A stretch of DNA of 64,000 nucleotides from NCBI GenBank assembly GCA_041170435.1, contig JBEAYU010000042.1, forward strand, positions 55,692 through 119,691. Reading direction: 5' to 3'. The notes below the pieces were generated by a model. The model saw only the letters and a program-made list of their open reading frames with translations, had not been told where the DNA came from and searched no databases. Position numbers and translations under genes: made by a program. The DNA comes from Bacteroidota bacterium (lineage in GTDB: Bacteria; Bacteroidota; Ignavibacteria; Kapaibacteriales; Kapaibacteriaceae). Shown piece after piece: positions 3 to 17,993 of this stretch. Every line of letters begins with the position of its first letter. Position 1 is the stretch's first letter.

Positions 3-1709
3 CATCAGTACGAGCAATCGACCTCGGCGTCGGTTCGCAAGTCGATCGAAAAGTACTTTGCCACGGTCACCTGCCGAGAATGCCAAGGTGGAAGGCTGAA
101 AAAGGCCCATGTTCATGTCCGCTTGGCAGGTCAAAGCATTGTCGATATCTGTCGGCGCGACATCGTGGATGCACGCACGTGGTTCCTGTCGCTTCGCGAC
201 GACCTCACAGATCGCCAGAACCACATCGCTTTTCTCATCCTCAAAGAGATCAACCAACGTCTCGAGTTCCTTGACGATGTGGGGCTCAGCTACCTCACGC
301 TGGATCGCAGTGCCCGCAGTCTCTCCGGAGGTGAATCCCAACGGATACGTCTGGCCTCACAGATCGGCTCTCACCTGGTGGGTGTCACCTACGTTCTTGA
401 CGAGCCGTCGATCGGACTCCACCAGCATGATAATCGAAAACTTATCGAGTCGCTCAAGCGGCTGCGTGACATTGGCAACACCGTGCTGGTGGTTGAGCAC
501 GACCGAGAAATGATCGAAGAGTCCGACACGATGATCGATGTTGGGCCAGGAGCTGGTGTGCACGGCGGATCGATCGTTGCCGTGAAGTCATCCGGTGAGA
601 TTCACGATATCATCTCCGGAAAGGACCGCTCGGAGAGCCCCTCCATCACATTGCAGTACCTTGGTGGGCAGCGACGCGTCTTCCGACCCGACGCTCGGAG
701 AGTCGGCAACGGAAAGATTCTCGAGTTGAAAGGGGCTCGCGGCAACAACCTCCGAAACGTGGATCTCGAGATTCCGCTCGGAACGTTCACCTGCGTCACG
801 GGTATGAGCGGTTCAGGTAAGAGTTCTCTGATCAATGACACCCTGTATCCGATCATGTCGGCACGACTTCATCGGTCAGAACTCAAGCCCCTTGACTACA
901 CGTCGATCCATGGCCTTGAGTTCATCGATAAGGTCATCGAGATCGATCAGACGCCGATTGGACGCACACCTCGCTCGAATCCGGCAACCTATACGGGACT
1001 CTTCACGCTGATCCGTGATTTCTTCACAATGCTGCCCGAGGCGAAGATCCGCGGCTACCAGGCAGGACGGTTTTCGTTCAACGTCTCCGGCGGACGTTGC
1101 GAAGAATGCGAAGGGGTCGGCCTGAAGAAGATCGAGATGAACTTCCTACCCGATGTGTACGTACCGTGCGAGACCTGTGGCGGCAAGCGCTATAATGCCG
1201 AGACGCTGATGGTGCGCTTCAAAGGCAAGTCCATCTCCGACGTACTGGAGATGACCGTTGAAGAGGCACGGGAGTTCTTCACCGATATTCCCCGAATCTC
1301 CACACGCCTGCAGACACTGATGGATGTGGGGTTGACCTACATCACGTTGGGACAGCAGGCAACGACATTGTCAGGGGGCGAAGCACAACGCGTAAAGCTC
1401 GCCACCGAGCTTGCAAAGTCGTACACCGGAAAGACGCTGTATCTGCTCGACGAACCGACCACTGGTTTGCACTTCGAGGACATTAGCGTTCTGATGAAGC
1501 TACTCCACCGCCTTGTCGATCGTGGCAATACGGTGGTCGTCATCGAGCACAACCTCGACGTCATCGTCAGTGCAGACCATGTCATCGATCTTGGCCCCGG
1601 TGGAGGTCGCGAGGGCGGACAGATCATTGCCACGGGAACACCGGAACATGTCGCGTCGTTGGACGTCTCTCTGACCGGTAGATACCTTGCGGCGGAACTG
1701 AGAAAATAA
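3..1709 (+). CDS. uvrA: Excinuclease ABC subunit A (UvrA), C-terminal ~568 aa; the 5' end lies upstream of the window
   Basis: Frame 3 is open from base 3 (HQYEQS...[12 protein letters not shown]). It has two ABC signatures ([24 protein letters not shown]), a Walker A (GMSGSGKSS) and a zinc module (CEECEGVG...CETCGGKRY), all typical of UvrA. Confidence 0.95.
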
Positions 1710-1783
1710 TTCCCATGTTTGCTGTATGTGCATGATTTGTCAACGCTGTTCGTCAAAGCGGCCACATCCATGAGAACCACACA

Positions 1784-4030
1784 GTGCCTCGCAGGCAAGA
1801 TCGCGGCAACATCCCGATCGAGAGGAGTGATCTGATCATGATCTCGATCCGACAACAGCTGCAACAGTGCTTGCATTCGACCGCTGAGCGCTCGAACATC
1901 GCCGACATCAACGTCACCATTTTCAATCGAGTTGACGAGTGTCTGGACGGCCAGAATGTCAGTCTCGATCGCATGTGTTCGATCCTTCGCGATATCGGCA
2001 TCGTTGCCACCATGCGCAAGAATGGTGGTCATCTGCCGGACGATCCATCGATGGTCATCTGGCTCGACGCTGCCGGGAACGTGCAACGCGCCGAGCGGTC
2101 CTCCTCAACATCATACCGGGTCGTGGACCAAGCCACGGGCGGCACCCGTTCTTCGTCGTGGAAGGACGTCGCTGCGCTCATCGGTGGCGGCGATTGCATC
2201 GTCATCCCGATCGCACAGCACTCATTTCTGAAAGGCGATGACTCCGAGGGCGCTTCGGCATCCACATCCGCTGGTGGCTATGCGGGCAAGACGAAACAGG
2301 TTCGGTTCCGGGATGTCTGGCCCCTTATCAAGAGTCTGATGAAGGCCGAGAAGCGCGACATTTTCATCGTCATCGTGTACTCCACCTTCATCAGTCTGCT
2401 CGGCCTGGTCGTGCCTCTGAGTAGCCAGGCAGTTGTGAACGCCGTCGCTCTAGGAGTGTTCAGTCGTCAGCTTGTCGTTCTTTGCGTCGTCGTCCTGATC
2501 GCCATGCTTGCAATCGCTGCCATGATGGTCCTTGAGCGTCATGTCATCGACTTCATTCAGCGTCGTTTGTTTGTCACGACCGCCTTTGACATCGTCAACA
2601 GGATTCCGCGGCTGCGTGAAGACGCCATCCGCGGCATGTACGTGCCGGAGCTGGTCAACAGGTTCTTCGACGTCATCACCGTACAAAAGACCATCGGAAA
2701 GTTTCTCCTTGAAGGCGTTGGGGCGTTTCTTATCCTGTTGACCGGGCTGTTGGTACTGTTCCTGTACCATCCTTTCTTTCTCGTGTACGATCTGATCTTC
2801 ATCGGATTCATCCCCATCCTCGTGTTCGTGCTCGGTCGGGGAGCTCTCACGACGTCGCTCGCCGTTTCCAACGCGAAGTATTCCACCGCTGCATGGCTTG
2901 AAGAAGTGGCGCGCAATCAACGGTCGATCAAGCTCGATGGAGACAGTGATTACGCTCAGAATCGACTTGACGTACTGAACGTGGAATATGTAGATGCCAA
3001 GGCTCGACACTTTCGCATCATGGCGCGACAGATGTTGGGCTCGTATATCTTCAAGGCCTTTGCCACGGTGGGCATTCTTGCACTCGGCGGCGTGCTCGTG
3101 CTTGAAGAGGCCATATCGCTCGGACAGCTTGTTGCCGCAGAGATCATCATCGTTATGATCATTGGTGCCATCGAAAAGCTCCTTGTTCAGTTCGATGATT
3201 TTTACGATTTCACTGCTGCCATCTACAAACTCCAAACCATTGCGAAGCTTCCAACCGAACATGCAGTTGGACAGCAGGTGCCGGCGTTCAAGGACGGTGG
3301 CTCGGTTGTTCTCGATGACGTATCCTACACCGACGGATCCTCCTCAGTTCTGCGGAATGTGTCATTAAGCATCAATGCCGGCGAGCACGTCAGTATCGTC
3401 GGTGGTAGCGGAAGTGGTAAATCGACCATCGCGAAGCTCATCGTAGGTCTTCTTCTGCCAAGTAAGGGTCATCTTCGTATCAACGGCGTCGATACCAAGC
3501 TTGCGGATCTGGCCTCCTTGCGTTCACATGTGGGCTATCTCGACCCCGACGATGCACTGGTGCCGGGTAGCGTGCGCGACAACATCACGCTTGGACGACC
3601 TGTCTCACAGTCTACCATCGATCAGGTGTTGAAGCTTTGCCTTCTCACAGAGGAGGTCCAGCGCCTTCCGCGTGGTCTGCAGACCGAGGTTATCGCACTT
3701 GGCGCTAACATCTCCTACAGCGTGCGCAGACGCATTCTTCTGGCTCGTGTTCTGCTGGGCATGCCTGACATCATCATTATCGACAGTGCATTCCAGGGCT
3801 TGGAGGATGGTCTGAAGATGCGCCTCGTTGAGTCCATCATGAACCAAACGTCCTGCACAGTCGTGAACATCTCTTTCGATACGGACATCATCAGTGCAAC
3901 TAACCGTGTGCACGTCTTGTCTCAGGGTGCTCTCGTGTGCTCAGGTACGCTTGATGAGGTATGTGCCGAACGTGAAGACCTGCGAGCTCTGCTCCTGCGC
4001 CGTCAACCCACGCGGGGAGGTTCGCAATGA
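1784..4030 (+). CDS. ABC exporter half-transporter (N-terminal extension + TM domain + nucleotide-binding domain with degenerate catalytic motifs)
   Basis: 748-aa ORF starting at GTG 1784; an alternative ATG at 1838 is preceded by GAGAGGAG. The TM block spans roughly residues 190-480. Walker A GGSGSGKST lies at 3401-3427. The signature position reads ISYSV (3710-3724), Walker B reads IIIIDS (D-S at 3782-3787), and the H-loop position reads NISFD (F at 3875-3877). The stop overlaps the next start (ATGA 4027-4030). Confidence 0.85.
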   Translation: MPRRQDRGNIPIERSDLIMISIRQQLQQCLHSTAERSNIADINVTIFNRVDECLDGQNVSLDRMCSILRDIGIVATMRKNGGHLPDDPSMVIWLDAAGNVQRAERSSSTSYRVVDQATGGTRSSSWKDVAALIGGGDCIVIPIAQHSFLKGDDSEGASASTSAGGYAGKTKQVRFRDVWPLIKSLMKAEKRDIFIVIVYSTFISLLGLVVPLSSQAVVNAVALGVFSRQLVVLCVVVLIAMLAIAAMMVLERHVIDFIQRRLFVTTAFDIVNRIPRLREDAIRGMYVPELVNRFFDVITVQKTIGKFLLEGVGAFLILLTGLLVLFLYHPFFLVYDLIFIGFIPILVFVLGRGALTTSLAVSNAKYSTAAWLEEVARNQRSIKLDGDSDYAQNRLDVLNVEYVDAKARHFRIMARQMLGSYIFKAFATVGILALGGVLVLEEAISLGQLVAAEIIIVMIIGAIEKLLVQFDDFYDFTAAIYKLQTIAKLPTEHAVGQQVPAFKDGGSVVLDDVSYTDGSSSVLRNVSLSINAGEHVSIVGGSGSGKSTIAKLIVGLLLPSKGHLRINGVDTKLADLASLRSHVGYLDPDDALVPGSVRDNITLGRPVSQSTIDQVLKLCLLTEEVQRLPRGLQTEVIALGANISYSVRRRILLARVLLGMPDIIIIDSAFQGLEDGLKMRLVESIMNQTSCTVVNISFDTDIISATNRVHVLSQGALVCSGTLDEVCAEREDLRALLLRRQPTRGGSQ

Positions 4031-5253
4031 CGTCGAATCGATTCTCCCTTAACCTTCTCGGCAGCCCATCGGTCCATCGCCACCTCGTGACGATCCTGCT
4101 GTCGATCCTCATCGGGTCGATCCTGTTTCTCATCTTCGTCCCGTGGCAGCAGTCGGTCGTCGGCAGTGGACGCGTCACCTCCTTCACGCCACAGGCACGA
4201 CCTCAAGCTGTCGAGAGTGCCATCAGTGGACGGATAACAAAGTGGTACGTTCGAGAGGGCGACCGCGTCAACAAGGGTGACACTATCCTTGTGATGGCCG
4301 ACATCAACGTCAACTTCATGGATGCGGAGATCATCGAACGATTGCAAATGCTCAGGGGGCGCACATTCGCTGCCCAGGAGCAAGCCATCCAGGTAGCGAT
4401 GCAACGGCGACGTCAGGCCGAGCAGCGCTATGAAGCCGCTCGCGCCCGGCTCGACAATGCCAGGATTGAGACTGAGACGGCACGCATACGATACAATCGA
4501 GCAGATACGTTGTTTCGTAACGATCTGGTGGCCCGTCGCGAACTTGAATCGGCTCAGCTGAATCTGCAGAAGGCGGTCGCCGACTCGGTGTCTGCCTCTA
4601 CTGGCTTGATGGCCGCCCGTCAGGATATTGAGGCCTTTTCTGCCGAAGAAGAGCGGGTCGTCAACCAGGCGTATTCGACCATGCACGAGATGGACATTCG
4701 GGTGTCGAACGCCGAAACGCGTCGTGGCGCCGGCGTGGTGCTTGCTCCGATCGATGGCGTGATTGTGCGAATCGAAAAATTCGGCGAAGGCATGACCGTG
4801 AAGGAAGGAACTCCGCTGGCGCTGATCGTGCCGGCCGGAGACGACCGTGCGGTGGAGCTTTACGTCGGGAGTATGGACGCCGCCCTCGTCGAACCCGGAC
4901 GGCTCGTATCACTCCAGTTCAGTGGCTTCCCTGCCTTCCAGTTCTCTGGATGGCAGGCTCTTCAAGTGGGCGTGTTCCACGGTCGTGTCAAGGTGGTCGA
5001 TGCCACCGATGACGGCTCTGGCCGCTTCCGGATTCTCGTCGTACCTGCGGAAGAATCCAAGTACGGCCGATGGCCAAGTAACCGCTACCTGCGTCAGGGC
5101 ACTGATGCCTCGGGATGGGTCCTTCTTGACGATGTGTCCGTTGGCTTCGAGCTCTGGCGACAGCTCATGGGATTCCCTCCGCAGTACCCGGTGACCCCAT
5201 CAAAGGCAGCTGGCAAGCCGGCGAAGAAGGAAGGGGCGAAGGAAGAGAAGTGA
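4027..5253 (+). CDS. HlyD-family membrane fusion (periplasmic adaptor) protein
   Basis: N-terminal TM anchor (LVTILLSILIGSILFLIFVPW), lipoyl-like hairpin (GRITKWYVREGDRVNKGDTILVM), a long coiled-coil segment and a C-terminal beta domain. It is translationally coupled to both neighbours. Confidence 0.85.
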   Translation: MTSNRFSLNLLGSPSVHRHLVTILLSILIGSILFLIFVPWQQSVVGSGRVTSFTPQARPQAVESAISGRITKWYVREGDRVNKGDTILVMADINVNFMDAEIIERLQMLRGRTFAAQEQAIQVAMQRRRQAEQRYEAARARLDNARIETETARIRYNRADTLFRNDLVARRELESAQLNLQKAVADSVSASTGLMAARQDIEAFSAEEERVVNQAYSTMHEMDIRVSNAETRRGAGVVLAPIDGVIVRIEKFGEGMTVKEGTPLALIVPAGDDRAVELYVGSMDAALVEPGRLVSLQFSGFPAFQFSGWQALQVGVFHGRVKVVDATDDGSGRFRILVVPAEESKYGRWPSNRYLRQGTDASGWVLLDDVSVGFELWRQLMGFPPQYPVTPSKAAGKPAKKEGAKEEK

Positions 5254-6629
5254 ACGGAGCTCTTCGCATCCTTCTGGTCTTGGCGGCCATCGTACTCGTA
5301 CACCCGAGCCTCCACGCGCAACGACGCGTCAGCCTACGTGAATTCCTCGATCTGGTCGAGCGGAACCATCCGACCATTCGTGCTGCAAACCTTGAGCCCG
5401 AACTCGCTGAGGCAGAGGTGAGGTCGGCCCTGGGACGCTTTGACCCATTTTTTGCCTTCAACTACGAATCCAAGGTCAAGTCGGGCAATGATAAGCTCAC
5501 CGTCCTTGAAGGGTCCATTGAGCAGCCCCTTGACATGCTCTTTGGCCCAAAGATCAAGGCAGGATTCCAACGCGGGACAGGCTTTTCGATCAACCCTGAA
5601 GATCTTACGGCAACAGCCGGTGAGGCCTCGCTGGGTGTGAGCATGCCTCTTCTTCAGGGGATCTTCACCGATGCTCGACGTAACAACCTTCGAAAGGCTG
5701 AGCTTCGACCAGATCTTGCCCTTGCGCAGCAGCGCATCGAGCGCAATGCCCTGCTGAGAACCGGTGCACTGCGTTTCCTCGACTGGAGTGAGGCGGCTGA
5801 GCTCGTTTCTGTGGCCGATACGCTGCTGGAGCTGGCACGCCGACGGCAGAGCTTCATCATCCGTCGATCGATCAGCGGCGAATCGGCGCTCATCGATTCC
5901 ACGGAAGCAGCTCAAGAGGTGCGCAGACGTGAAGGCGAGCGCCTGCGCACACTCCGCATGGCCGAGCAGTTCGCGGTCGATGTCAAGGGGCTCATCTTTG
6001 CCGACAATGGCATTCAGATCCCAGACCCATTTGATGCACCAACGGGGCTTACGGGACGTCCGGATTCGGCTCGCACAACCGACAGAGCCATCAACGTGGC
6101 CTTCGCAGCACGTCCGGAACTTCGACGCGTAGAGATCGCACTCCAGACCGCGCGTCTTGACTCGACGCTCGCTCGAGAGTTCATGAGGCCAAACCTTGAG
6201 CTCGATGCCGGCGTTGTAGCATTTGATGCCGGACAGCCTTCGGCGATCGATTACAAGATCGGCCTCAAGATGCAGCAGCCCCTTTTCTTCCGCCAAGCCT
6301 CAGCCGGTGTGCAGACCACGTCGGTCGCAGTCGATCGAGCAGAGTTTGCCCTTCAGCTGATGCGCCGGCTTGTTGAGATCGATGTGCGCAATTCAATGAT
6401 CGCCATTGAACGCTCACTTGAGCGTTTGACGATCGCTCAGGAAGAAGTGCGTTTGGCTCTCATCATGGTCAACGCCGAACAGCAACGATTTACTGCGGGA
6501 GATGCCTCGCTCCTGACCCTCAACTTGAGAGAGCGGTTCTATGGCGAAGCTCTGCAGCGCCTTGTCTCAGCGAAGGCCGATGTCGAGCGCGCCAACATCA
6601 GTCTCCTCTGGGCAATGGGTATAATCTGA
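5250..6629 (+). CDS. TolC-family outer-membrane efflux protein
   Basis: The GTG start overlaps the HlyD stop (GTGA 5250-5253). It has a signal peptide (ALRILLVLAAIVLVHPSLHA), a 459-aa helix-rich two-repeat architecture typical of TolC/OprM-type outer-membrane factors, and third position in an ABC-MFP-OMF operon. Confidence 0.8.
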   Translation: MNGALRILLVLAAIVLVHPSLHAQRRVSLREFLDLVERNHPTIRAANLEPELAEAEVRSALGRFDPFFAFNYESKVKSGNDKLTVLEGSIEQPLDMLFGPKIKAGFQRGTGFSINPEDLTATAGEASLGVSMPLLQGIFTDARRNNLRKAELRPDLALAQQRIERNALLRTGALRFLDWSEAAELVSVADTLLELARRRQSFIIRRSISGESALIDSTEAAQEVRRREGERLRTLRMAEQFAVDVKGLIFADNGIQIPDPFDAPTGLTGRPDSARTTDRAINVAFAARPELRRVEIALQTARLDSTLAREFMRPNLELDAGVVAFDAGQPSAIDYKIGLKMQQPLFFRQASAGVQTTSVAVDRAEFALQLMRRLVEIDVRNSMIAIERSLERLTIAQEEVRLALIMVNAEQQRFTAGDASLLTLNLRERFYGEALQRLVSAKADVERANISLLWAMGII

Positions 6630-6691
6630 TTGGCGTATCTTTGCAGCCCTTTGAACGACGATTTCATCACGAATAACTCACAGTTACACAC

Positions 6692-7438
6692 ATGAACATT
6701 CTCGTGTGCATCAGCCAGGTACCTGATACGACCACCAAGGTGGCCGTCGGTGCCGACGGCACGTCGATCAACCCCGCAGGGGTCAAGTATATTCTGAATC
6801 CCTACGATGAGTTCGCTATCGAAGAAGGTCTTCGACAGCGCGAACGTCACGGTGGAACGGTCACAGCCGTGAGCGTTGGACCCGACTCGGTCAAGGAAGT
6901 TCTCCGGACGGCTCTGGCCATGGGCGTCGATACAGCGATTCACATCAAGGATGACCAGCGAAGCGACTCGTTCTGCGTCGCCAGCTCCATCGCCGATCTG
7001 GCCAAGGAGTCCACTCCTGACCTGATCATCTTCGGACGTCAATCGATCGACTTTGATTCGTTTGCTCTTCCGTCAATGACGGCCGAGATACTCGGCTGGG
7101 CCGACATTCCGGTGGTGTCGATGCTGTCGATCGACGGTTCTGCCATTACCGCCGAAAGCGATATCGAGGGAGGCAAGTACTCCGTATCGTGTGAACTGCC
7201 ATGTGTGATCAGCGCGCAAAAGGGGCTGAACGATCCACGGTACCCAAAGCTCCCGGACATTATGAAGGCAAAGTCCAAGCCGATCGCTGAACGCCCAGCG
7301 TCTGGACAATCGGCTCGCGTTACCACAACGTCAATGGCCCTGCCGGTGACGAAGCGCCTCAACAAGGTGCTCGGTGATTCCGATGCCGACGTCAAGGAAT
7401 TGGTCCGTCTCCTCCACGAAGAAGCAAAGGTGATCTAA
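6692..7438 (+). CDS. etfB: Electron transfer flavoprotein beta subunit
   Basis: The N-terminus MNILVCISQVPDTTTKV and the 248-aa length match EtfB. etfA follows 3 nt downstream. Confidence 0.93.
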   Translation: MNILVCISQVPDTTTKVAVGADGTSINPAGVKYILNPYDEFAIEEGLRQRERHGGTVTAVSVGPDSVKEVLRTALAMGVDTAIHIKDDQRSDSFCVASSIADLAKESTPDLIIFGRQSIDFDSFALPSMTAEILGWADIPVVSMLSIDGSAITAESDIEGGKYSVSCELPCVISAQKGLNDPRYPKLPDIMKAKSKPIAERPASGQSARVTTTSMALPVTKRLNKVLGDSDADVKELVRLLHEEAKVI

Positions 7439-7440
7439 CA

Positions 7441-8409
7441 ATGAGCATACTCGTCGTACTTGAAGCGCAAGCCGGTGGTCTGAAGCGCACCTCATGTGAA
7501 GCCATCACCGCGGCTCTCTCCGTTTCTGGCGGATCAGCCGTCACGGGCATCATTTTCAACGGCGCGCAGGAGCAGTTTGCAGCAGCCGGAGCCCACGGCC
7601 TTTCCAAGGTTCTGAACATCAGCGGCGATGAGTGGACGTCGATCCCCTCGGCACGCATGGCCGCCGCCATCTCAGATGCAGCCGTCTCCGTTGGTGCATC
7701 ACTTGTGGTCTTCGGCGCCAACTCGTTCGGAAAGAATGTCGCCCCACGAGTATCGGTGCGGCTCGGAGCAGGGTTCCTACCTGACTGTGTGGCTCTGAGC
7801 GGAACGGCCGGTTCGATCGAAGCAACGCGCCCCGTCTATGCAGGTAAGGCCCTCGTGAACGTCACGTCCACCACCGCAACGACGGTGGTGACACTTCGTC
7901 CGAATCTCTTCACCGCCAAAAACGTGGCAGGGGGCGAAGCAGCATCGGAAGCATTTAGCCCAACATCGGCATCATCCCTGCCCACCATGCGCGTCACGTC
8001 CGTCACGCGCAACGAGGGTCAGCTTGACGTCTCGGAGGCCGACATCATCGTCTCCGGCGGTCGTGGACTGAAGGCACCGGAGCACTTTAATCTGATCGAG
8101 GGTTTGGCAAAGAGTCTCGGTGCCGCCGTTGGTGCATCACGCGCCGTGGTCGATGCCGGGTGGCGTCCCCATCGGGAGCAGGTCGGCCAGACCGGCAAGA
8201 CCGTCAGTCCCACCATGTACGTTGCATGCGGCATCAGTGGTGCCGTACAGCACCTTGCGGGTATGTCTTCGAGCAAGATTATTGTCGCAATCAACAAAGA
8301 CAAGGATGCCCCTATCTTCAGTGTCGCTGACTATGGCATTGTTGGTGACGTCTTCGAGGTCCTTCCGCGATTGACGAGTGCCATCTCTGAGGTAACGGGC
8401 AAGAACTGA
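7441..8409 (+). CDS. etfA: Electron transfer flavoprotein alpha subunit
   Basis: 322 aa with a C-terminal FAD-binding region (YVACGISGAVQHLAGM, IVAINKDKDAPIF) typical of EtfA. Confidence 0.93.
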   Translation: MSILVVLEAQAGGLKRTSCEAITAALSVSGGSAVTGIIFNGAQEQFAAAGAHGLSKVLNISGDEWTSIPSARMAAAISDAAVSVGASLVVFGANSFGKNVAPRVSVRLGAGFLPDCVALSGTAGSIEATRPVYAGKALVNVTSTTATTVVTLRPNLFTAKNVAGGEAASEAFSPTSASSLPTMRVTSVTRNEGQLDVSEADIIVSGGRGLKAPEHFNLIEGLAKSLGAAVGASRAVVDAGWRPHREQVGQTGKTVSPTMYVACGISGAVQHLAGMSSSKIIVAINKDKDAPIFSVADYGIVGDVFEVLPRLTSAISEVTGKN

Positions 8410-8422
8410 GAAAGATGTTCGG

Positions 8423-9022
8423 ATGAGCAAGGTACAGGTCGACATACTTGGTCTATCGGTCAACCCAAATTCGCAGCGAGCATATGCTTTGCTGTTGCGG
8501 GAGATCGGTGGCCAACGTCGTTTGCCGATCGTCATCGGAGAACCCGAAGCTCAGGCAATTGCCAATCAATTGGAAGGCGTCCACTCACAACGTCCGATGA
8601 CGCACGACCTTTTGAAGAACGTCATTGATGCTCTTGGTGCGCAGGTCCGTGAGGTCGTGATCACATCGATCAAGGATGGCACCTTCTACGCATCGATCTT
8701 CTTCGAGTACTCTGACCTCGAAGTCGATGCACGACCGAGTGACGCGATCGCTTTGGCCGTGCGGTGTCAGGTCCCGATCTACGTGGACGAGTCGATCATG
8801 GACGAAGCATCGATTCATGCTGATGAGATCCGCGAGCTCGAGGAAGGTAGTTCCGACGAAGAAGAACCCGCTGAACAGCTGCCGGCGGTTGCTCCGTCTG
8901 CAGAGCCCCTTACCTTGCGACAAAGGTTGGAACAAGAACTTGATCAGGCCATCAAGGTCGAGGACTATGAAGCTGCCGCTCGCATCCGGGATGAGATCAG
9001 TCGCTTGCAAAATCCAACATAG
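8423..9022 (+). CDS. Bifunctional nuclease family protein (DUF151-type) with C-terminal UVR motif
   Basis: Core motifs LLLREIGGQRRLPIVIGEPEAQAI, RPMTHDLL and RPSDAIALAVR, an acidic linker, then a UvrB/UvrC-type motif EDYEAAARIRDEISRL. Confidence 0.8.
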   Translation: MSKVQVDILGLSVNPNSQRAYALLLREIGGQRRLPIVIGEPEAQAIANQLEGVHSQRPMTHDLLKNVIDALGAQVREVVITSIKDGTFYASIFFEYSDLEVDARPSDAIALAVRCQVPIYVDESIMDEASIHADEIRELEEGSSDEEEPAEQLPAVAPSAEPLTLRQRLEQELDQAIKVEDYEAAARIRDEISRLQNPT

Positions 9023-9068
9023 GTTTTGAATCTGACGGACGTTCGTATCTTTGCATCCCCTCTTGAGG

Positions 9069-9142
9069 GCCGGAGTAGCTCAGGTGGTTAGAGCAACGGA
9101 ATCATAATCCGTGTGTCGGGGGTTCAAGTCCCTCCTCCGGTA
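9069..9142 (+). tRNA. tRNA with anticodon CAT (elongator Met, or Ile2 if C34 is lysidinylated); CCA not encoded
   Basis: Hand-folded cloverleaf. Acceptor stem GCCGGAG/CTCCGGT (one G-U pair), D arm GCTC-AGGTGGTTA-GAGC, anticodon arm ACGGA-ATCATAA-TCCGT, variable loop GTGTC, T arm GGGGG-TTCAAGT-CCCTC, discriminator A. Confidence 0.9.
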
Positions 9143-9150
9143 CTTTCAAC

Positions 9151-9181
9151 AGCGAAGCACATTGTGCTTCGCTGTTTTTGT
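9151..9181 (+). terminator. Rho-independent terminator after the tRNA
   Basis: Perfect inverted repeat AGCGAAGCAC / GTGCTTCGCT (9151-9160 / 9164-9173) followed by TTTTTGTTTG. Confidence 0.7.
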
Positions 9182-9397
9182 TTGTTCAGCCGTCAAGCCT
9201 TCTCGAAAGCCGCCAGAGCAGAAGGCGCGCCACACCCATTTTCTATTTTCTTCCCCGTTGCACCGACATGCGGTAACCTAACGTGATCGCACAAGTCTTG
9301 GTCTTAATTGCGGCGTAGTCGTAGCGTAGTTTCATTTGTTATTGGAGTTCGAATCCATGAGGATTATTCTCAAACTCGTTGATGTTCGAGGTAGAAA

Positions 9398-11845
9398 ATG
9401 CTGCTCAAAGTGAAATACTATATCACTTGCCTTTTGGCGTGCGTTTACTTCCTAAACGCCGACCACGTCTGTGCTCAGGGCCGTGAACCGGACCTTTGGT
9501 GGAGCGGTATAGCGCCGAGGACGGTGTTTCATCATCCTTTATGGGGATATGTTGCACTCTTTGAATTCAATGGCCTCTATAGCGGTCAATCGCTGTCCGA
9601 TATGAAGCCGGTACTCCCGGAAGCAAACTGGGATCGAATCAAGGCTTTGCCGAACATGGCCATTCTTAGCAGTGGCGTTTGGGTGGTAGCTGGAGGAACA
9701 CCTCCACGGGAGACACCGGGCAGTATTTTTCGCTTCACACCGGGAAAGACACCCGAACTCCTCACCGGTGCCGACCTGGATTCATCAATTATACTTGGGG
9801 GCGGCATCGACTATGGCGTGATTTGTCGGTCCTTTGAGCCAGATGGTTTTGTCCTCAGTCGCCTGTATTCGACGAATAGTGGTGCCAGCTGGCACTACGG
9901 CCAGTGGCCAGACTCGGTGGAATCAGGATCGTGGGGCTTTGTCAATCGCCTGCCTGATCTGGGATTCGTAGCCTTAAACGAGCGAGATACGTCCTGGCAT
10001 CGATTGGAGTTGCCTTCGAAACGATGGCTGAAAACAAACCAGATTCCAGGGTCCTGCAGGGAGCTCACCCCGTTACGGAATGGCTCTGTCGTAGCAGTTG
10101 TGGAGACGAGTCGTGACGTCTACACTGGAGTCGCGGTACGACCAAGTGGCTCTCAAGAGTGGTCCTTTCATCGGGATGTGCGCATACGCAACATGAAGGA
10201 TTCCCTGCGTCCGATCTGGCGTTTAAGACAGGAACGAGAGCCAGTTTTTCACGTGATCAATGACTCACTCGCAGCTATGGCAATGGACAGCGGGATCATC
10301 GTTTTTTCTGATGGTCGGGATGTGTGGTCAGTGAAAATGGATATCCCGAAACAACTGCGATATGTTGGCAAGGTTAGGACATCTGTCAGTGTTGCAGGCG
10401 AAACGATCTACATGAGTTACACCGATGGCATGAGCCCTTCACACGTGACCTATCACGTTACGTCGGGCAAGACGAAGATTCTTTCACGACTCCCACCGAT
10501 GCAAATAGCCAACAACATGATCATTGGCTATCACTCGAACAGCCTGCGCATCTATGAACCTGAGGAAGATCTACTGCGTCCAATTCTCAGAGCACGCGGT
10601 GCCGGAGACGAACCGATTTTCCCATCATCATTTTCGTCGCTCGTGCCTCACGATGGGGCGATATACACCCGCAATCAAAACGGGGAGGTTCTGTCTGTGA
10701 ACATCCGAGATAGGACCGCACAATTTGTATCGTGGCTCCCTACGGATTTTCCGACAACATCCCGGGCGCAGCATGAGATTGGCTCCAAACCATGTGTGTC
10801 GACTCCTGCCGGGCTCATGCTGATCGGAAGTCGTGGACTTCGCCGCATGAATGGTCGGGTAGCAACGAACCTACGACCCGATAGTGCTTCTTTTGTCTAT
10901 GCAACCGATGATAAGATGTTACTCAGTGGATACAGGAGTCTGTTCATGTCGGTCGACTCCGGCGTAACGTGGAGGAGTGTACCCGGTCCGTTCGACAGCG
11001 CGAGTGTAAAACCAGCGATCTCGTCATGCATTGTCAACGGGCAGACGATGATCGTTGCCTTCCGTGGCTATGACGTAGAAACAGATGGGACTCCTGACGG
11101 GTATGTCCCGGGTGGACTGTATCGGTCGATTGATGGTGGGTCTGCATGGGAGGCATTGCCTCTGCCTGTGCCAGCGCGCTGGGTCGAGTCGCTCCATAGG
11201 TCCGAGTCCGGAGACTTGTGGTGTTGGGCCATCGATCAATATCTTGAAAGGTCGGGAACGAGTTCCAAGTTTCGTTACAACACCGGGACTCTTCTTCGAT
11301 CCGGCGACGATGGCAAGTCATGGCAGGTCGTGCATTCAGAGCTCGGTTCGCAAAAGCTGAAAGATCTCGCTCCCTGGAGCATCAGCTCGCTTGGTGGACG
11401 AGTTGTCGTCAATAGTGACGAGACAGTATTACTTACAGACAACGGCGGCAATACATGGAAATCGTTTAATGATATTCCACCCGGCACACCGATCACTGGA
11501 TCCGTGATCGATACCGCAGGACAGATATGGGCTGCGACGAATGACGGAATTTACATACTAGACGCAACGACACATGTCAATTCGGACTTGCTGAAAAACA
11601 CTTCGTCGATGGAACCGCGCGTATGGCCAAACCCATCTGATGGATCATTTACCCTAAGGTGGACCGCTCATCAGCAGAGCACCGTTCCTGCAGCGATCGA
11701 CGTCGTCGACAACCTTGGCCGGAGCGTCATGTATTCAATCAACCAGAACAGCATCACGCTGCTCAACGCGTCTGCCGGAATCTATTACCTGCGGTGGCGC
11801 ACAGGCTCCTCTGCCGGAGCGATTCCAGTGATGGTTCGCAAGTAG
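9398..11845 (+). CDS. Secreted BNR/Asp-box repeat protein with T9SS C-terminal sorting domain
   Basis: Signal peptide, then five Asp-box-like motifs (STNSGASW, SVDSGVTW, SIDGGSAW, SGDDGKSW, TDNGGNTW). The last ~75 aa (VWPNPSDGSFTL...GIYYLRW...VMVRK) look like a T9SS C-terminal domain. Confidence 0.75.
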   Translation: MLLKVKYYITCLLACVYFLNADHVCAQGREPDLWWSGIAPRTVFHHPLWGYVALFEFNGLYSGQSLSDMKPVLPEANWDRIKALPNMAILSSGVWVVAGGTPPRETPGSIFRFTPGKTPELLTGADLDSSIILGGGIDYGVICRSFEPDGFVLSRLYSTNSGASWHYGQWPDSVESGSWGFVNRLPDLGFVALNERDTSWHRLELPSKRWLKTNQIPGSCRELTPLRNGSVVAVVETSRDVYTGVAVRPSGSQEWSFHRDVRIRNMKDSLRPIWRLRQEREPVFHVINDSLAAMAMDSGIIVFSDGRDVWSVKMDIPKQLRYVGKVRTSVSVAGETIYMSYTDGMSPSHVTYHVTSGKTKILSRLPPMQIANNMIIGYHSNSLRIYEPEEDLLRPILRARGAGDEPIFPSSFSSLVPHDGAIYTRNQNGEVLSVNIRDRTAQFVSWLPTDFPTTSRAQHEIGSKPCVSTPAGLMLIGSRGLRRMNGRVATNLRPDSASFVYATDDKMLLSGYRSLFMSVDSGVTWRSVPGPFDSASVKPAISSCIVNGQTMIVAFRGYDVETDGTPDGYVPGGLYRSIDGGSAWEALPLPVPARWVESLHRSESGDLWCWAIDQYLERSGTSSKFRYNTGTLLRSGDDGKSWQVVHSELGSQKLKDLAPWSISSLGGRVVVNSDETVLLTDNGGNTWKSFNDIPPGTPITGSVIDTAGQIWAATNDGIYILDATTHVNSDLLKNTSSMEPRVWPNPSDGSFTLRWTAHQQSTVPAAIDVVDNLGRSVMYSINQNSITLLNASAGIYYLRWRTGSSAGAIPVMVRK

Positions 11846-11863: not shown

Positions 11864-12382
11864 TCACCTCAGCTCGTTCACCGCCCGCTCTTCGGCTGGT
11901 ATGCGGATTCTTGTCAGGATGAGATAGTTGAGTGCCGTGGCGATGATGGCTGTGAGGTATGCCCCGACAAAAAGAGGGATGACGAAGAACTCAACGAGCA
12001 CGACAATGTAGTTCGGGTGCGAAACGTACTTGAAGGGTCCTGCCGTGACTCTTTCAGCACCGGGCACGACGATAATGCGCGTGTTCCACGCAGGCCCCAG
12101 TGTAGAGATTGTCCAGTACCGCATGACCTGGGCTAAAGAGATCACCCCGACAAAGAGCCACCACGGCTGCTGCATCTCGCCGCCGCGAAGAATATGTTCG
12201 CTGATCCAGCCGATGAACCACGACACGTGCAGAGCAACGATCAGCGGATAATGTCCGGCAGCATACTCGCGGCCACCACGGGCAAAGGCCAGACGCGCAT
12301 TGCGCTTGGCATGAACAAGCTCGGCAAGACGCTGCAAGGATAGAAGGACGAGCAGAACAATTGCGGCAACGTGCATGGTCAT
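11864..12382 (-). CDS. Isoprenylcysteine carboxyl methyltransferase (ICMT) family membrane methyltransferase, BpsB/SrsB-like
   Basis: The ORF was trimmed to the ATG at 12382, which overlaps the PKS stop (ATGA), giving 172 aa. It is multi-TM with the C-terminal HPNY motif (YVSHPNYIVVLVEFF). It sits immediately downstream of a type III PKS, as in bpsA-bpsB and srsA-srsB. Confidence 0.75.
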   Translation of the reverse strand: MTMHVAAIVLLVLLSLQRLAELVHAKRNARLAFARGGREYAAGHYPLIVALHVSWFIGWISEHILRGGEMQQPWWLFVGVISLAQVMRYWTISTLGPAWNTRIIVVPGAERVTAGPFKYVSHPNYIVVLVEFFVIPLFVGAYLTAIIATALNYLILTRIRIPAEERAVNELR

Positions 12383-13425
12383 TCCACAGAGTTGCGCAGC
12401 AAAACGAGCTCGGAGCTGAAGCCCGGTCCGAGCGCAGCCATCAACGAATACCGCTGCCGAGGGGCTGCTGAGCGCAACCACTGCTCGAGAACGAAGAGCA
12501 CACTCGCACTCGACATGTTCCCAAAGTTGCGCAGGACCGTGCGGGCCATGTCGAAGGTTTCGGCCGGCAGACCCGTGGCCTGCGAATAGGCCTCGAGGAC
12601 CTTCGAGCCCCCTGGATGCGCTATCACGTCACGAACGTCGCTGCGCTCAATGTTCCATGCCCTGCAGGCACTATCGAGCACCTGCGGGATATTCTCACGG
12701 ACGAAGGTTGGAATATCGCGGGAGAACCTCACGGCCAACCCATTATCGGTCACATCCCAGCCCATGATGTCATGCGTGTCGGGAAAGAGCGTGCTGTGAC
12801 TGTCAACGATCTGTGGGCCGCCCCCTTCCCCACCGATGAGCACCGCGGCAGCCCCATCACCGAAGATCGAACTGGCCACGATGTTGGACTTGCGAGTATC
12901 TGACTGACGAAAGGTCACACTGCAGATCTCGACGGCCACCAAGAGAACGAATGCACCTCCGAGAGCGCGAGACAACTCTGCAGCTCGAGCCACACCCGAC
13001 ACTCCGCCGGCGCAACCAAGACCAAAGATCGGCAGTCGCTTGGTGGTGGACGGCAGAGCAAGGCGCTGGATCAGTGCAGCATCGAGTGACGGTGTCATCA
13101 CGCCCGTGGAGCTGACCACCACGACCGCTCGAACCTTGTCGATATCAGCTCCGGCCGCATTGCGTGCTGCCACTTCAGCAAGGTCCAATGCTGACTGGGC
13201 AAACACCGCATTGGTCTCACCAAAGCCATGATCGCTCTCATACCACTCGGGTGGTCGCACGAAGTATCGTCTGTGAATGTGGTCGTGCTCGAACACGCGA
13301 AGAAGGCGATCAAGATCGGTCACTCGTTCGCCAAAGACGCGTTCGACAATGCGCCGAACGATCGACTGGTCCACCGCATGCTCCGGCACGGCCGTCGCGA
13401 CATTCAACAGTCGGATCATGCTCAT
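12379..13425 (-). CDS. Type III polyketide synthase (chalcone synthase superfamily)
   Basis: 348 aa with the Cys-His-Asn triad contexts present: [37 protein letters not shown]. Confidence 0.9.
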
Positions 13426-14222
13426 GACCGTATCGTGTCCGGATCGACCTCGGGACTGTCACACGTGTTGCGGAAGACTAGCTGTGAGAGGCGCTTTCGA
13501 TGCGCACTACTCCAGTCAATGCGCGGCCGCTGCCGGTCGGGCGGCAAATAGCCAAGTCGGTATACTGCCATGAGCTCCATGTCGTCAGGAACCTTCATGA
13601 TACGCTTCAGCTCTTGCCAGGCCTCCGGGATCTCCATCGGAGTCGAGACAAACTGAATTCCCATGCCCAACTCCGTCGTCATGAGCCAAATGTGTTCAAT
13701 GGCCATGCCGAGTGATAGCGTGCAGTAGAAGCCACTGAGTTCGCCCGGACGATACTCGTCCTTGCTGAGTAATGCGGCAAGAAGAAGAGGACTTCCTTCA
13801 ATAAGCTTACGATTGTCTTCACCCAGCATCTTGGCCACGCCCAGCTTTGAGAGCACATTCATGACGCTGTCTGAAAACACCTGCTTGATGAAGGGGCGAA
13901 GCGCAATAGGCATCTGATCGATAAAGATGCCATCCCGCCGTTCATCCATCTCCTTTTCACTGAAACGGAAGTACTTGCGATAGCGCGTAAAGAACGTGCC
14001 ACCCTCGATTAGCTGCGTCATGGTGCTGCCACCAATCTCAGCGATTCGCGTGCGAATCGCCGGATCGTCAATGAGCACGAAGCGCCATGGTTGGGAGTTG
14101 AAATGACTCGGAGCTCTCTCCGCAGCTTGGATCAGCATGTGCTGATGTTCAAGACTGACGGGACCGGGATCAAAGGCACCGTTCGTCGTCTTCCGAGATT
14201 GAATCGCCTCCCAAAGGGTCAT
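13422..14222 (-). CDS. Nitroreductase-family flavoprotein
   Basis: The N-terminus ([15 protein letters not shown]...[17 protein letters not shown]) is typical of the nitroreductase fold. It shares 4-nt overlaps with both neighbours. Confidence 0.75.
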
Positions 14223-16015
14223 TCGCCTTGCTCGTAAAGTGAATCGACAACATCCGCATAACGTTCAAGAACAGCTTTTCGCTTAACCTTCAATGTCGGC
14301 GTGAGCATGCCGTTCTCGACGCTGAATGACTCAGGAATGATGGCAAAGCGTCGAACCTTCTCAAACTTTGATAGATCGCGCTGCAGCTTGTTGATCTCTT
14401 TCTCAACCGTTGAGCGCAACGAGGGATTGCCGACTAATTCTTCCCACTCGGTTGCAACAATGGCGTTCTTCTCCGCCCATGCTTTGGCAGCTTCTTTGTC
14501 CAACACAAGAAGTGCCGTGCAGTATTCGCGCGCATCGCCAACGAGCATCACTTGATCCACAAATGGACACTGCGCGATGAGCGCCTCGATCGGCTGGGGA
14601 GCAATGTTCTTGCCGCCGGAAGACACAAGAAGGTGCTTCTTACGGTCAGTGATGCGGAGGTGCCCCTTATCATTGAACTCTCCAATATCACCTGTATGCA
14701 ACCACCCTTCGGGGTCGATGCTCTTGGCTGTCTCTTCCTCATTACGCCAGTAGCCACGCATGATGTTCGGGCCGCGGGCAAGGATCTCACCGTCATCGGC
14801 GATCTTGACCTCGACACCGGGAATTGGTGTACCAACCGTGCCAAGTGCGATGTCTTCGAGCCTATGGACGCTGATAACCGGTGAAGACTCGGTCAGTCCA
14901 TAACCTTCGACGATCTTGATGCCGAAGACCTGGAAGAAACGGCCAATCTCGGGATTGAGCGCTGCTCCACCTGAGACGAAGAACCGCAAACGTCCACCAA
15001 ATCGATCACGGATCTTTGAGAACACCAGCTTGTCTGCCAGCGCATGTTGAAGTCCTACAAGCGGCCCACCCTTGCCATCAATGACCGCCTCGCCAACCGA
15101 GTAGGCCCAGCGGAAGATCTTCTGCTTGATGGGCTTGTCCTTCTCCACCGTACTGAGGATGCGCAAGCGAATACGCTCGAAGAGTCGCGGCACGGACGTC
15201 ATCATCGTCGGACGAACCTGACGCATCAGTTCCGCCACCGTCTCGATGGACTCTGCGATCGTCAGCGAGCCCCCTACCGAAAAGGCGAGGTAAAATCCTG
15301 CCATGCGCTCGAAAATGTGGCAAAGGGGCAGGTATGACACGAGAGAGTCGGTATCGTAAAGAGTGATGACCGTCTGCGAGGAGAGAACATTCGAGACAAG
15401 GTTGTTATGCGTGAGCATCACGCCCTTGGGATTCCCTGTCGTGCCGCTGGTATAGATCAGCGTTAACAGATCATCAGGCTTGATCTGGGCAGCAGTCGAC
15501 ACATATAGATCACACCGATGCTGCGCCGTCGTTGTGCTCTCGGCCTTCTGCATCAAGGCCTTCATCGATATCACGCGCTCGTCGTCGCACTCAATCTCAT
15601 TCATCGTGACGATGTGACGAAGCATTGGAAGATCGTCCCATACCTGACGGAGCTTGTTGAGCTGCAACTGATTTGAGACGACCACGCAGACAGCATCACA
15701 GTCATGATAAATGTATTGGAGCTGCTTCGGCGTCAGCGTCGGAAACACCGGCACATCAATGATGCCAAGGCCAGTCATGGCGAAGTCCGAAATGAACCAC
15801 TCGGTGCGGTTCTCGCTGATGATGCCCACTCGATCACCCTTTCGGATGCCAAGATCATGCAGGCCAGCAGCAAGCAGTTCGACGCTGCTGCGAAGCTGAT
15901 CATGAGTGATCGACTTCCACTCGCCGGACACACGTTCCGTGTATGGATACTTGTCTGTTCGCCCTTGATAGCGATCACAGACCTTCATGAACATGTCGGG
16001 TATCGTTGTGAACAT
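14219..16015 (-). CDS. Long-chain fatty acid-CoA ligase (AMP-dependent synthetase, FadD-like)
   Basis: AMP-binding motifs [32 protein letters not shown] and [19 protein letters not shown]. The start was trimmed to the MFTTIPDMF codon at 16015 to avoid overlapping the upstream gene. Confidence 0.88.
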
Positions 16016-16058
16016 GTCGTTGATCTCCCCAGAGAAACAAATGATCGGAAATATGCAA

Positions 16059-17993
16059 CTAGTCGGTGAAAGACCAGTCAACACTCAGGCGGAAAACACG
16101 AGATAACTCTGGAGCATTCAATACCGTGTACCATGGATTACCAAGAATATTCTCATACGAGGCACGGACGCTGGCATTTCCCACGAGTGCCGTCAGGTAC
16201 ACCGACAGTCCATCGATCTGGGAGGGGGCCTGCCCCACCCCCTGACGGAAGGACCAGACAAGGGGCTCGTACGACGGCAACCGAGACGCCGGAAGCCAAG
16301 AACCCACTAGACCTATTCGAACACTGTTGGAAGGCGTACGGAACACATACGCCACATCGGCATCGAACATCGTAAATGACGACGCTATAGTATCTTCGGC
16401 ACCAAGTTGTTGCTCCATGCGCACACGCGTGCGAAGCTCGATATTGCCCCACGGGAGGAACGACTGAAGACCGGCTCCGATGAGGCGACGTTCACCGCCA
16501 GGTACAAAGGTGATCAGCGGCGATCCACTCCCGGGAAGCATATCGATGGCGTTCGCGATCGTGCGGTGATAGGCACGTAATCGCAACAGTTCTCCCGGAA
16601 GCCACAGATCGACGACAGCCAGTGTATGCTGCTCCGGCTGGCTCACGAACTGCCGTTGAACCGGAGTGGGCTCCTGCGTGTAGGAGGATAGATCGACGCG
16701 CGCCGTGAATGCTTGGGTAGCATAGGTCGCCCCTCCTCCGAGGGCGACCCTCTGCTGGGCCAATACTGTATGAGACCTGGCAGCGAGCCGGAGAAGCAGC
16801 GCTCCCAGCCGATACTCGCCATGCGCAAAAATGTCTGCCTGCAGGTCTGATAGCTCCGGACTGCGCGTTGTGGAGTCGAACGATCGTGACTGCAGGTGAG
16901 CTCCGAATCGGACCCTCAAGCTTCCGAGACGCTGATCGAAACGTCCAACAAGACCCGTGTGCTGTCCGTCAGCGTGGAGAACGCCGAGCGTGTCACTTGG
17001 TTGCACGGCCAGGCCAACACCCTGCAGCCGATGCAGAGTCTGACCGCTGACGTATCCCTGAAGCGTCAGCACGGATGTTGAATCCTGTGCCAACTTTCGG
17101 TGATAGGTGGCTGTCAGATCATGACGACGGGTCTGCTCCTCCAACGCGTCTGGGCCATCGTAGCGAACCGTAGCGAGTTGATCCACCGCCGATGATGTGC
17201 CACTTGGATCAAGTCCACCCCAGATCTGCGTCGTCAGCGTCGTCAGCCCATAGCGAACCAGAAGACTCTGCCTCTCATCCACCGTCCACCTGGCCGTAAG
17301 ATCAACGTTCCACATGCCAAAGTCCGTGCGCTGGTACCGACCGCGCGCACCGGAGCGACGGATGCTTGCCGCAACATTCAATCCTGGAGCGACATTTTGT
17401 GCGAACGTAACATTGGCCGCGACGAGGTCTCCTGCACCTTGATGGTACCACATACTCATGAAGGGAGTGGCCGTGTTGTACACCACCGACTGGAGGTTGT
17501 AGAGCGAGGCCGTAGCTGTTGGGGCCAGTCCAATTGCATCGCTTCCATAGAGGAACTCGATGCGCTCGATGGTCGAAGGGGGCTGCTGCAGCAGATTGAA
17601 TTGTCCTGACCACAGGTCCAGCAGCGGACGTGCATCAAGCCCGATCGATAGGTGCTGGGGACCCCCTCCCAGAACCGAGATGGCATCGTACTGTCCGAAG
17701 CCACCGTTGCGCATTGGCAGAAACATCGACGATGTGCGTAACAAATCGCCGAGGCTTTCAAACTGATACAAACGAATCCGCTGCTTCGTGAGGATATCTG
17801 CACGAGCTGCATCGCCGGTATCAGCCAGCGCTCCAACTGCACGATCAGGAAGGCGCAGACTATCGGTCTGCGCGCTGACCGGATGCAGCATAGAGAGTGT
17901 CAGCAGCACCATAAACGAACAACACCAGATCCGACGAGGTCGTCCCTGGTGTTGCATCGTTGATGTGATGTACTTCATGTTCAGCCGGCTCAC
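16059..17993 (-). CDS. TonB-dependent receptor-like outer-membrane beta-barrel protein
   Basis: Signal peptide (..MVLLTLSMLHPVSAQ), plug-like segment (IERIEFLYGSDAIGL) and a long strand-rich C-terminal region. At 644 aa it is short for the family. Confidence 0.6.
   Translation of the reverse strand: MSRLNMKYITSTMQHQGRPRRIWCCSFMVLLTLSMLHPVSAQTDSLRLPDRAVGALADTGDAARADILTKQRIRLYQFESLGDLLRTSSMFLPMRNGGFGQYDAISVLGGGPQHLSIGLDARPLLDLWSGQFNLLQQPPSTIERIEFLYGSDAIGLAPTATASLYNLQSVVYNTATPFMSMWYHQGAGDLVAANVTFAQNVAPGLNVAASIRRSGARGRYQRTDFGMWNVDLTARWTVDERQSLLVRYGLTTLTTQIWGGLDPSGTSSAVDQLATVRYDGPDALEEQTRRHDLTATYHRKLAQDSTSVLTLQGYVSGQTLHRLQGVGLAVQPSDTLGVLHADGQHTGLVGRFDQRLGSLRVRFGAHLQSRSFDSTTRSPELSDLQADIFAHGEYRLGALLLRLAARSHTVLAQQRVALGGGATYATQAFTARVDLSSYTQEPTPVQRQFVSQPEQHTLAVVDLWLPGELLRLRAYHRTIANAIDMLPGSGSPLITFVPGGERRLIGAGLQSFLPWGNIELRTRVRMEQQLGAEDTIASSFTMFDADVAYVFRTPSNSVRIGLVGSWLPASRLPSYEPLVWSFRQGVGQAPSQIDGLSVYLTALVGNASVRASYENILGNPWYTVLNAPELSRVFRLSVDWSFTD

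Follow-up and report, generated by a model that had tools for sequence, protein, structure and literature searches.

A tripartite ABC/HlyD/TolC-type system of a Kapabacteria lineage whose only ABC subunit lacks the residues canonical for ATP hydrolysis

In a 64,000-nucleotide (nt) stretch of a Kapaibacteriales genome (contig JBEAYU010000042.1, positions 55,692–119,691; hereafter the window), three co-directional genes flanked by uvrA upstream and etfB/etfA downstream encode an ATP-binding cassette (ABC) half-transporter, an HlyD/EmrA-type periplasmic adaptor and a TolC-like outer-membrane factor. Here we report, from sequence comparison, that the nucleotide-binding domain (NBD) of the ABC protein in this lineage has none of the residues that canonical ABC proteins use for ATP hydrolysis and yet retains those that bind Mg-nucleotide (A-loop Tyr, Walker A and Walker B Asp), and that loss of catalytic residues is a recurrent trait throughout the family to which the protein belongs. 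All coordinates are positions within the window, where the exporter genes lie on the + strand (Table 1).

The nucleotide-binding domain and its conservation

We fixed the motif register by phmmer alignment to ABCB-type exporters of known structure, in which exporter and query segments paired as lvSQEp/ylDPDd, LSGGQ/ISYSV, llDEAtsalD/iiDSAfqglE and iaHRl/isFDt. Together with translation of the DNA, this reproduced each motif of a preliminary description made from the sequence alone, which had placed Pro, ISYSV, Asp-Ser, QGLE and Phe at the positions of the Q-loop Gln, the LSGGQ signature, the Walker B Asp-Glu, the D-loop SALD and the H-loop His, next to an intact Walker A. Mis-assigned offsets, a possible source of error in such an assignment, did not account for the pattern, since canonical Gln, LSGGQ, Asp-Glu and His residues were recovered neither by profile alignment nor in lenient windows around the expected sites, where we found no hhhDE and, within 18 residues at the H-loop, no His. 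The A-loop Tyr lies 24 residues ahead of Walker A, which we take to be the spacing expected for the A-loop aromatic position from HlyB-type NBDs. Because the degenerate signature, Walker B and H-loop share one chain, a homodimer would carry two crippled composite ATP sites, as had been proposed at the outset.

Table 1. Features of the exporter locus within the 64,000-nt window. Residue numbers follow the 748-aa translation from GTG 1784 where so marked.
Feature	Coordinates	Strand	Basis
ABC half-transporter gene	1838–4030	+	730 aa; Pfam, orthologue starts, AlphaFold2 (AF2) model
N-terminal C39-like domain, ~125 aa (probable)	1838–2215	+	Domain model with mean predicted local distance difference test (pLDDT) 84.7; Foldseek
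Six-helix type I exporter membrane domain	2306–3244	+	PF00664, AF2 helices; motifs PELVNRFFDV, YHPFF, SLGQLVAAE
NBD, fold intact, catalytic residues gone	3296–4003	+	PF00005 84 bits, pLDDT ~90 or higher
A-loop aromatic, Tyr515 (748-aa numbering), retained	3326–3328	+	24 residues ahead of Walker A
Walker A GGSGSGKST, intact	3401–3427	+	Translation; fits GxxGxGK[ST]
Q-loop position, Pro for Gln, in YLDPDD	3545–3547	+	phmmer alignment, translation
Signature position, ISYSV for LSGGQ	3710–3724	+	phmmer alignment, translation
Walker B end, Asp-Ser (IIIID-S): Mg-binding Asp kept, catalytic Glu replaced by Ser	3782–3787	+	Alignment, translation
D-loop region, QGLED for SALD	3794–3808	+	phmmer alignment, clade comparison
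H-loop position, Phe for His	3875–3877	+	phmmer alignment, translation
HlyD/EmrA-type periplasmic adaptor (membrane fusion protein) gene	4027–5253	+	408 aa; HlyD_3, Biotin_lipoyl_2, TIGR01843 84 bits
TolC-like outer-membrane factor gene	5250–6629	+	459 aa; signal peptide; Pfam OEP 98 bits

The substitutions are not private to this genome. The query clade consists of 16 protein clusters of 65–100% identity, all 16 of which have P, [LI]SYS[VL], D-S and F or V at the respective positions, with the exact GGSGSGKST in 15. Close orthologues, in which canonical motifs would have pointed to a recent pseudogenising drift, thus carry the same substitutions as distant ones. Purifying selection on them is strong: in comparisons with two orthologues at 80% identity, approximate ratios of non-synonymous to synonymous substitution rates (dN/dS) were 0.05–0.09 for the NBD, ~0.03 for the membrane domain and 0.22 for the N-terminal domain, with ~0.04 for the adaptor, 0.06–0.10 for TolC and 0.03–0.09 for the housekeeping protein EtfB. 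Moreover, positions 1700–6700 of the window are matched at 99.3% identity by a contig of an independent freshwater metagenome dating from 2016, and the ABC gene differs between the two populations by 23 synonymous changes and one non-synonymous change, a S42I replacement in the N-terminal domain (NBD: five synonymous, none non-synonymous).

These data bear on the simplest alternative, a pseudogene in recent decay, which the loss of canonical motifs would suggest if taken alone. The frame is, however, intact and translationally coupled, identical substitutions are fixed down to 65% identity, dN/dS is far below 1, 23 of the 24 population differences are synonymous and the AF2 fold is confident. 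We therefore discarded this explanation as very improbable, in keeping with the initial argument against simple decay. Metatranscriptome contigs matching the adaptor gene (4528–4812) and covering the TolC gene (5208–6494) give weak evidence that the operon is expressed.

Operon, protein architecture and comparison with known exporters

Direct translation bore out the coupling of the trio by overlapping stop and start codons, ATGA at 4027–4030 between the ABC and adaptor genes and GTGA at 5250–5253 between the adaptor and TolC genes. The ABC open reading frame (ORF) is long and intact, as first described, but the start assigned to it then did not hold: the frame is open from GTG 1784, giving the 748-aa translation, whereas annotated orthologues and the recorded protein begin at ATG 1838. 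In the leader, Rfam gave no riboswitch match, and consensus scans for promoters and terminators stayed at chance level. UvrA contains the sole other NBD of the window, in which there is no second exporter-type ABC gene, and we found neither an RTX (repeats-in-toxin) nor any other C-terminal-signal cargo gene linked to the operon, nor a conserved fourth gene. The same holds more widely. Among the 80 related loci kept for counting operon neighbours, an adaptor gene occurs in 77 and a TolC gene in 70, beside a single family ABC gene; one ABC subunit per system, noted at first for this locus, is thus the rule across them. No other neighbour is conserved in these loci, where LysR, ArsR and TetR regulators are sporadic.

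The description of the trio as a type I secretion-like or peptide-exporter-like tripartite system finds support in the HlyB/PCAT (peptidase-containing ABC transporter) architecture indicated by Pfam and Foldseek. Pfam recognises ABC_membrane (PF00664, 36.2 bits; cut-off 28) and ABC_tran (PF00005; cut-off 25) in the ABC protein, whose NBD has the RecA-like plus helical fold. The AF2 model of the full protein has a pLDDT of 85.5 overall, and its top Foldseek matches over the full length are PCAT1 and HlyB, with target-normalised TM-scores (template modelling scores) of 0.8–0.9 for exporter cores. For PCAT1, the best E-value was 9e-32 (9azl), and the cysteine-free core 8vow_B gave a target-normalised TM-score of 0.91 with a root-mean-square deviation of 2.8 Å; for HlyB 8dck_A, 727 columns aligned with TM-scores of 0.72 (query-normalised) and 0.77 (target-normalised).

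The N-terminal ~125 residues, followed by a disordered linker to ~2305, are probably an inactive C39-like domain. Their best Foldseek matches are to the C39-like domain of HlyB (7sgr_A, E 3e-4; 3zua, E 5e-4), with TM-scores of only 0.51–0.57 (0.57 against 3zua, target-normalised), followed by the C39 peptidases of LahT, ComA and PCAT1. We read the domain as inactive because it has no match to the Pfam C39 profile (PF03412) and no family-wide Cys or His column; a sequence-profile search of the PDB gave no significant match either. Many relatives are without it. A Q-x5-C pattern (QQLQQC; residues 5–11 of the 730-aa protein, window 1838–1900) in helix 1 occurs in the query clade only, with Gln and Cys as far apart as the oxyanion Gln and the catalytic Cys are in C39 peptidases; it is not followed by a matching conserved His.

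The membrane domain contains almost every invariant column of the ABC protein. Across ~450 sequences, its polar and charged residues, among them E289, R293, D296, K302, Y328, H329, D336, K365, H409, Q416, Q448, E453 and K482, are 81–100% conserved.

In its three components the system matches E. coli HlyB-HlyD-TolC (PDB 7SGR, 8DCK), and the ABC protein has the domain order of HlyB, with a probable C39-like domain ahead of the six-helix type I exporter domain and the NBD last. HlyB, however, has all canonical ATPase motifs and its secretion needs hydrolysis, whereas the query is without Q, LSGGQ, E and H; it also scores only 184.7 bits against the HlyB model TIGR01846 (cut-off 725.55) and falls far under the cut-offs of the LssB, PrtD and NHLP models. 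Unlike the HlyB system, moreover, it has no linked RTX-type cargo gene, its TolC is encoded in the operon and its adaptor has only ~20 cytoplasmic residues. PCATs (PCAT1, ComA, LahT) are the best overall structural matches and share the probable C39 fold of the N-terminal domain, but differ from the query, which has no PF03412 match, no conserved Cys/His dyad, a catalytically dead NBD and no double-glycine peptide gene nearby. The query thus resembles both systems in architecture and fold and fails their curated models and catalytic definitions.

Comparable substitutions in the Walker B Glu, the H-loop His and the signature occur in heterodimeric exporters (TM287/288, TmrAB, BmrCD, PatAB, EfrCD; human TAP, CFTR and ABCC1), in which the degenerate site has a structural or regulatory role and continues to bind ATP tightly (PMC7756269). 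These exporters split the degenerate elements over two subunits and are left with one consensus site, whereas in the query all elements are in one subunit and both sites are degenerate; the single ABC gene at the locus upholds this distinction, already drawn in the preliminary description. Given that known degenerate-motif ABC exporters are heterodimers with one consensus site (PMC7756269), the protein might pair with a catalytically competent type I half-transporter encoded elsewhere, which would supply hydrolysis. We consider such a hidden partner unlikely. ISYSV would degrade the partner's site too, so that no consensus site would be left. Partners in heterodimers are normally encoded by adjacent genes, and no second exporter-type ABC gene lies in the window or beside any of the 80 related operons. 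Furthermore, orthologues at the same locus that have lost even Walker A, described below, still keep the adaptor and TolC.

Loss of catalytic residues in the family and at the uvrA/etfBA locus

The query shares the markers of its family: E[LV]VNRFFD, [ST][LI]G[QE]LVAAE, YHP at the helix 3/4 turn and the trio of one ABC, one HlyD and one TolC protein. Homologues are abundant in Kapabacteria, Ignavibacteria and Chlorobi, and two membrane-domain motifs recovered at least 588 loci from one-genome-per-species contigs, among them loci of Melainabacteria, Planctomycetota, Bacteroidota, Acidobacteriota, Myxococcota and other phyla. A profile of the membrane domain only matched 1,503 clusters (50% identity) at E ≤ 1e-30 and 6,701 at E ≤ 0.001 among 1.84 billion representatives, and we regard this domain as distinctive because so few clusters match even at the lenient threshold. 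NCBIfam has no model for the family (best score LssB, 197 bits against a cut-off of 693), its members carry only generic names at NCBI and in other sources, and we found no description of it in the searchable literature. Cultured relatives with dead NBDs include Luteitalea sp. TBR-22, Ohtaekwangia kribbensis, Chryseolinea sp., Flavilitoribacter nigricans and Neolewinella aurantiaca. Two Luteitalea proteins (P0210 and P0211) that we had considered as paralogues proved to be one gene with two start calls, and two short matches that might have represented members lacking an NBD were a truncation at a contig end and a locus fragmented by frameshifts. On one metagenome contig (L088, 6001–10509), a family member is split into short ORFs comprising ABC_membrane, an ABC_tran fragment, adaptor pieces and an OEP fragment, the apparent result of frameshift errors in the assembly or of genuine pseudogenisation of the operon.

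A motif census indicates that loss of catalytic residues is a family-wide, recurrent trait. LSGGQ was present in 0 of 197, 0 of 120 and 2 of 124 members in samples 1, 2 and 3, the last being the least redundant, and the Q-loop Gln in three, one and four members respectively; hhhDE, scored by a lenient window test, was missing from 39%, 40% and 71%. Among members without both Glu and His, G-x4-GK[ST] was present versus absent in 60/15, 43/0 and 57/24 cases (samples 1, 2 and 3). The A-loop aromatic is kept where Walker A is kept (the column is aromatic in 52 of the 61 members with Walker A but without Glu) and is lost along with it. On a tree built from membrane-domain columns only, the minimum number of state changes was 8–10 for Glu, 9–11 for His and 6 for Walker A. 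Conservation is higher in the membrane domain than in the NBD, also among members with D-E and His, which reverses the usual ABC pattern.

Three versions of the NBD share one locus in Kapabacteria, with the gene order uvrA-ABC-HlyD-TolC-etfB-etfA-BFN: a catalytically intact version with D-E and His (L003, L004), a Walker-A-only version (the window, L001, L081, L083) and a fully eroded one (L005, L086, L087). Because the gene order is shared, the versions are positional orthologues rather than paralogues. Sister to the query clade, with 99% local support, stands a clade of ~590-aa proteins from which Walker A (e.g. CTDPADAAL), the A-loop aromatic, the Walker B Asp and the N-terminal domain have all been lost. 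Dividing NBD dN by membrane-domain dN gives a ratio of 1.6 for the D-E/His pair, 1.4–2.1 within the query clade and 3.1–3.7 within the Walker-A-less clade, so that the query NBD, with a ratio like that of catalytic orthologues, is not relaxed and that of the sister clade is. The adaptor and TolC are similarly conserved across all three versions. The fully eroded orthologues argue that the function of this locus needs no ATP at all.

Two further explanations can be weighed against this series. In the first, the NBD would hydrolyse ATP after all, through substitute residues such as D587/D589/D590 of the Q-loop or E674/D675 of the D-loop. The domain is as constrained as a catalytic one, its Walker A, A-loop and Walker B Asp are all present, and the acidic residues of YLDPDD do not vary within the query clade; nonetheless, five catalytic elements have been replaced at once, and the acidic Q-loop pattern Y.D.DD persists in the sister clade, which cannot bind ATP, and hence more likely serves a contact between the NBD and the membrane domain. 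With mutation of the Walker B Glu or H-loop His known to abolish or greatly lower turnover in studied ABC exporters (PMC7756269), we judge non-canonical catalysis rather improbable. In the second explanation the protein would transport nothing and would anchor or assemble the HlyD/TolC duct, or fill another structural role in the envelope, with the NBD as a folding or dimerisation module. Walker-A-less orthologues do keep the operon despite a relaxed NBD, and no substrate gene is linked to it. We nevertheless doubt such a scaffold role, since the membrane domain is the most conserved part (dN/dS ~0.03) and has near-invariant polar residues inside its helices, which a translocation path or coupling site fits better than an anchor, and since the strict retention of Walker A and the A-loop in the clade argues for a nucleotide-dependent step.

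A cluster encoding a type III polyketide synthase, an ICMT-like methyltransferase, a nitroreductase and an acyl-AMP ligase, which resembles a phenolic-lipid pathway, lies 5 kb downstream of the exporter (11864–16084, − strand). Its synthase, methyltransferase and nitroreductase genes are present with ABC proteins that keep Walker A (L004, of the D-E/His version, and the query clade, represented besides the window by L081 and L001) and absent from the three Walker-A-less genomes (L005, L086, L087), where the ligase alone is kept. This co-occurrence probably reflects one evolutionary event, and is only a hint of a possible substrate. In L087, the adaptor gene (8308–9411) is uncalled and tblastn recovers only residues 10–291, so the operon may be breaking down there, unless the assembly is in error. 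On the upstream side of uvrA, a further ABC efflux system is present in relatives (L083, 618–6848; L086, 1–5039), one of MacB type that is TetR-regulated and has an adaptor and outer-membrane factor to itself, L083 also having an RND (resistance-nodulation-division) pump; the window itself starts inside uvrA.

The large ORFs of the window encode a C25 peptidase, SprA, DnaE and a SurA-like protein. Among them are components of type IX secretion, namely a 1,909-aa protein with a C25 peptidase domain (PorU-like; 20573–26302, − strand) and a SprA-domain protein of more than 2,143 aa (57509–63940, − strand). A sortilin-like protein with a type IX secretion tail is encoded at 9398–11845. The bacterium itself is Kapabacteria-like and lives in freshwater.

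A nucleotide-gated conduit as the favoured mode of action

Sequence and predicted structure together lead us to favour, as reasonably likely, a homodimeric, envelope-spanning conduit in which both sites bind ATP and turn it over very slowly or not at all, so that nucleotide would gate rather than power export, itself downhill or otherwise coupled. The ABC-fold inner-membrane protein would form this conduit with the HlyD-type adaptor and the TolC-type channel. At the two equivalent sites of the homodimer ATP would be bound and not hydrolysed, or hydrolysed only very slowly, the degenerate signature and D-loop being expected to weaken the ATP sandwich enough for closure to be reversible without hydrolysis. 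Nucleotide binding would then deliver no power stroke, and would instead close the NBD dimer, gate it or make it more stable, and so act on the conformation of the membrane domain. Net export could run thermodynamically downhill, the outside being an infinite sink for a cytoplasmic product, or be coupled to another process. For such coupling the best candidate is an ion gradient acting via polar residues of the membrane domain that hardly vary, namely H329, D336 and E453, situated towards the periplasm, and the E289/R293/D296/K302 cluster.

Each half of this proposal has a precedent. In CFTR and SUR, a conduit is controlled by the binding of ATP, and uphill transport is not driven by its hydrolysis; unlike the query, both are full-length ABCC proteins of eukaryotes, have one active site and do not belong to a tripartite bacterial system. 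SbmA/BacA has an ABC-exporter-like membrane domain without an NBD and is driven by the proton gradient, a precedent for ion-gradient use. The parallel drawn here is one of mechanism; in contrast to the query, SbmA is an importer and has no NBD and no adaptor or TolC partner.

Several points weigh against a gated, non-hydrolysing conduit. About half of the family keeps D-E and His, and for that half hydrolysis is evidently important. In its membrane-domain consensus the dead Kapabacteria clade does not differ from its catalytically intact kin, and we found no new protonatable residues or other convergent membrane-domain changes alongside the loss of Glu and His, so that an alternative energy source has no direct backing from that domain. 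Between-species comparisons have saturated dS, which is why the dN/dS ratios are approximate. The metatranscriptome has no contig on the ABC gene, and its contigs may include DNA carry-over. Finally, all functional statements made here are drawn from sequence and predicted structure.

More tentatively, the conduit may belong to a widespread exporter class that has repeatedly abandoned hydrolysis, with a membrane domain that is ion-coupled or facilitative (perhaps through H329/D336/E453) and an NBD that became first a nucleotide gate and then a nucleotide-free vestige; we hold this broader evolutionary reading, under which the Kapabacteria locus would preserve three successive stages, with somewhat less than even confidence.

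In reviews covering degenerate ABC sites and tripartite systems (PMC7756269, PMC8277102), every degenerate site described is a single one that has an active site as its partner, and our full-text literature search found no description of an ABC/adaptor/TolC system whose ABC subunit is fully degenerate. ABC exporters are generally held to require one or more consensus ATP sites, and the query is a selectively maintained, apparently homodimeric protein with two dead ones. The dead-NBD state appears, moreover, to be common and recurrent in a large, multi-phylum and uncharacterised family of tripartite pumps, which raises the questions of what powers export and what role a non-hydrolysing nucleotide-binding cassette would play. 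What this locus adds is the intermediate state that retains Walker A, together with the series of positional orthologues in which it stands: a natural allelic series of intact, Walker-A-only and fully eroded NBDs, which makes these questions experimentally tractable.

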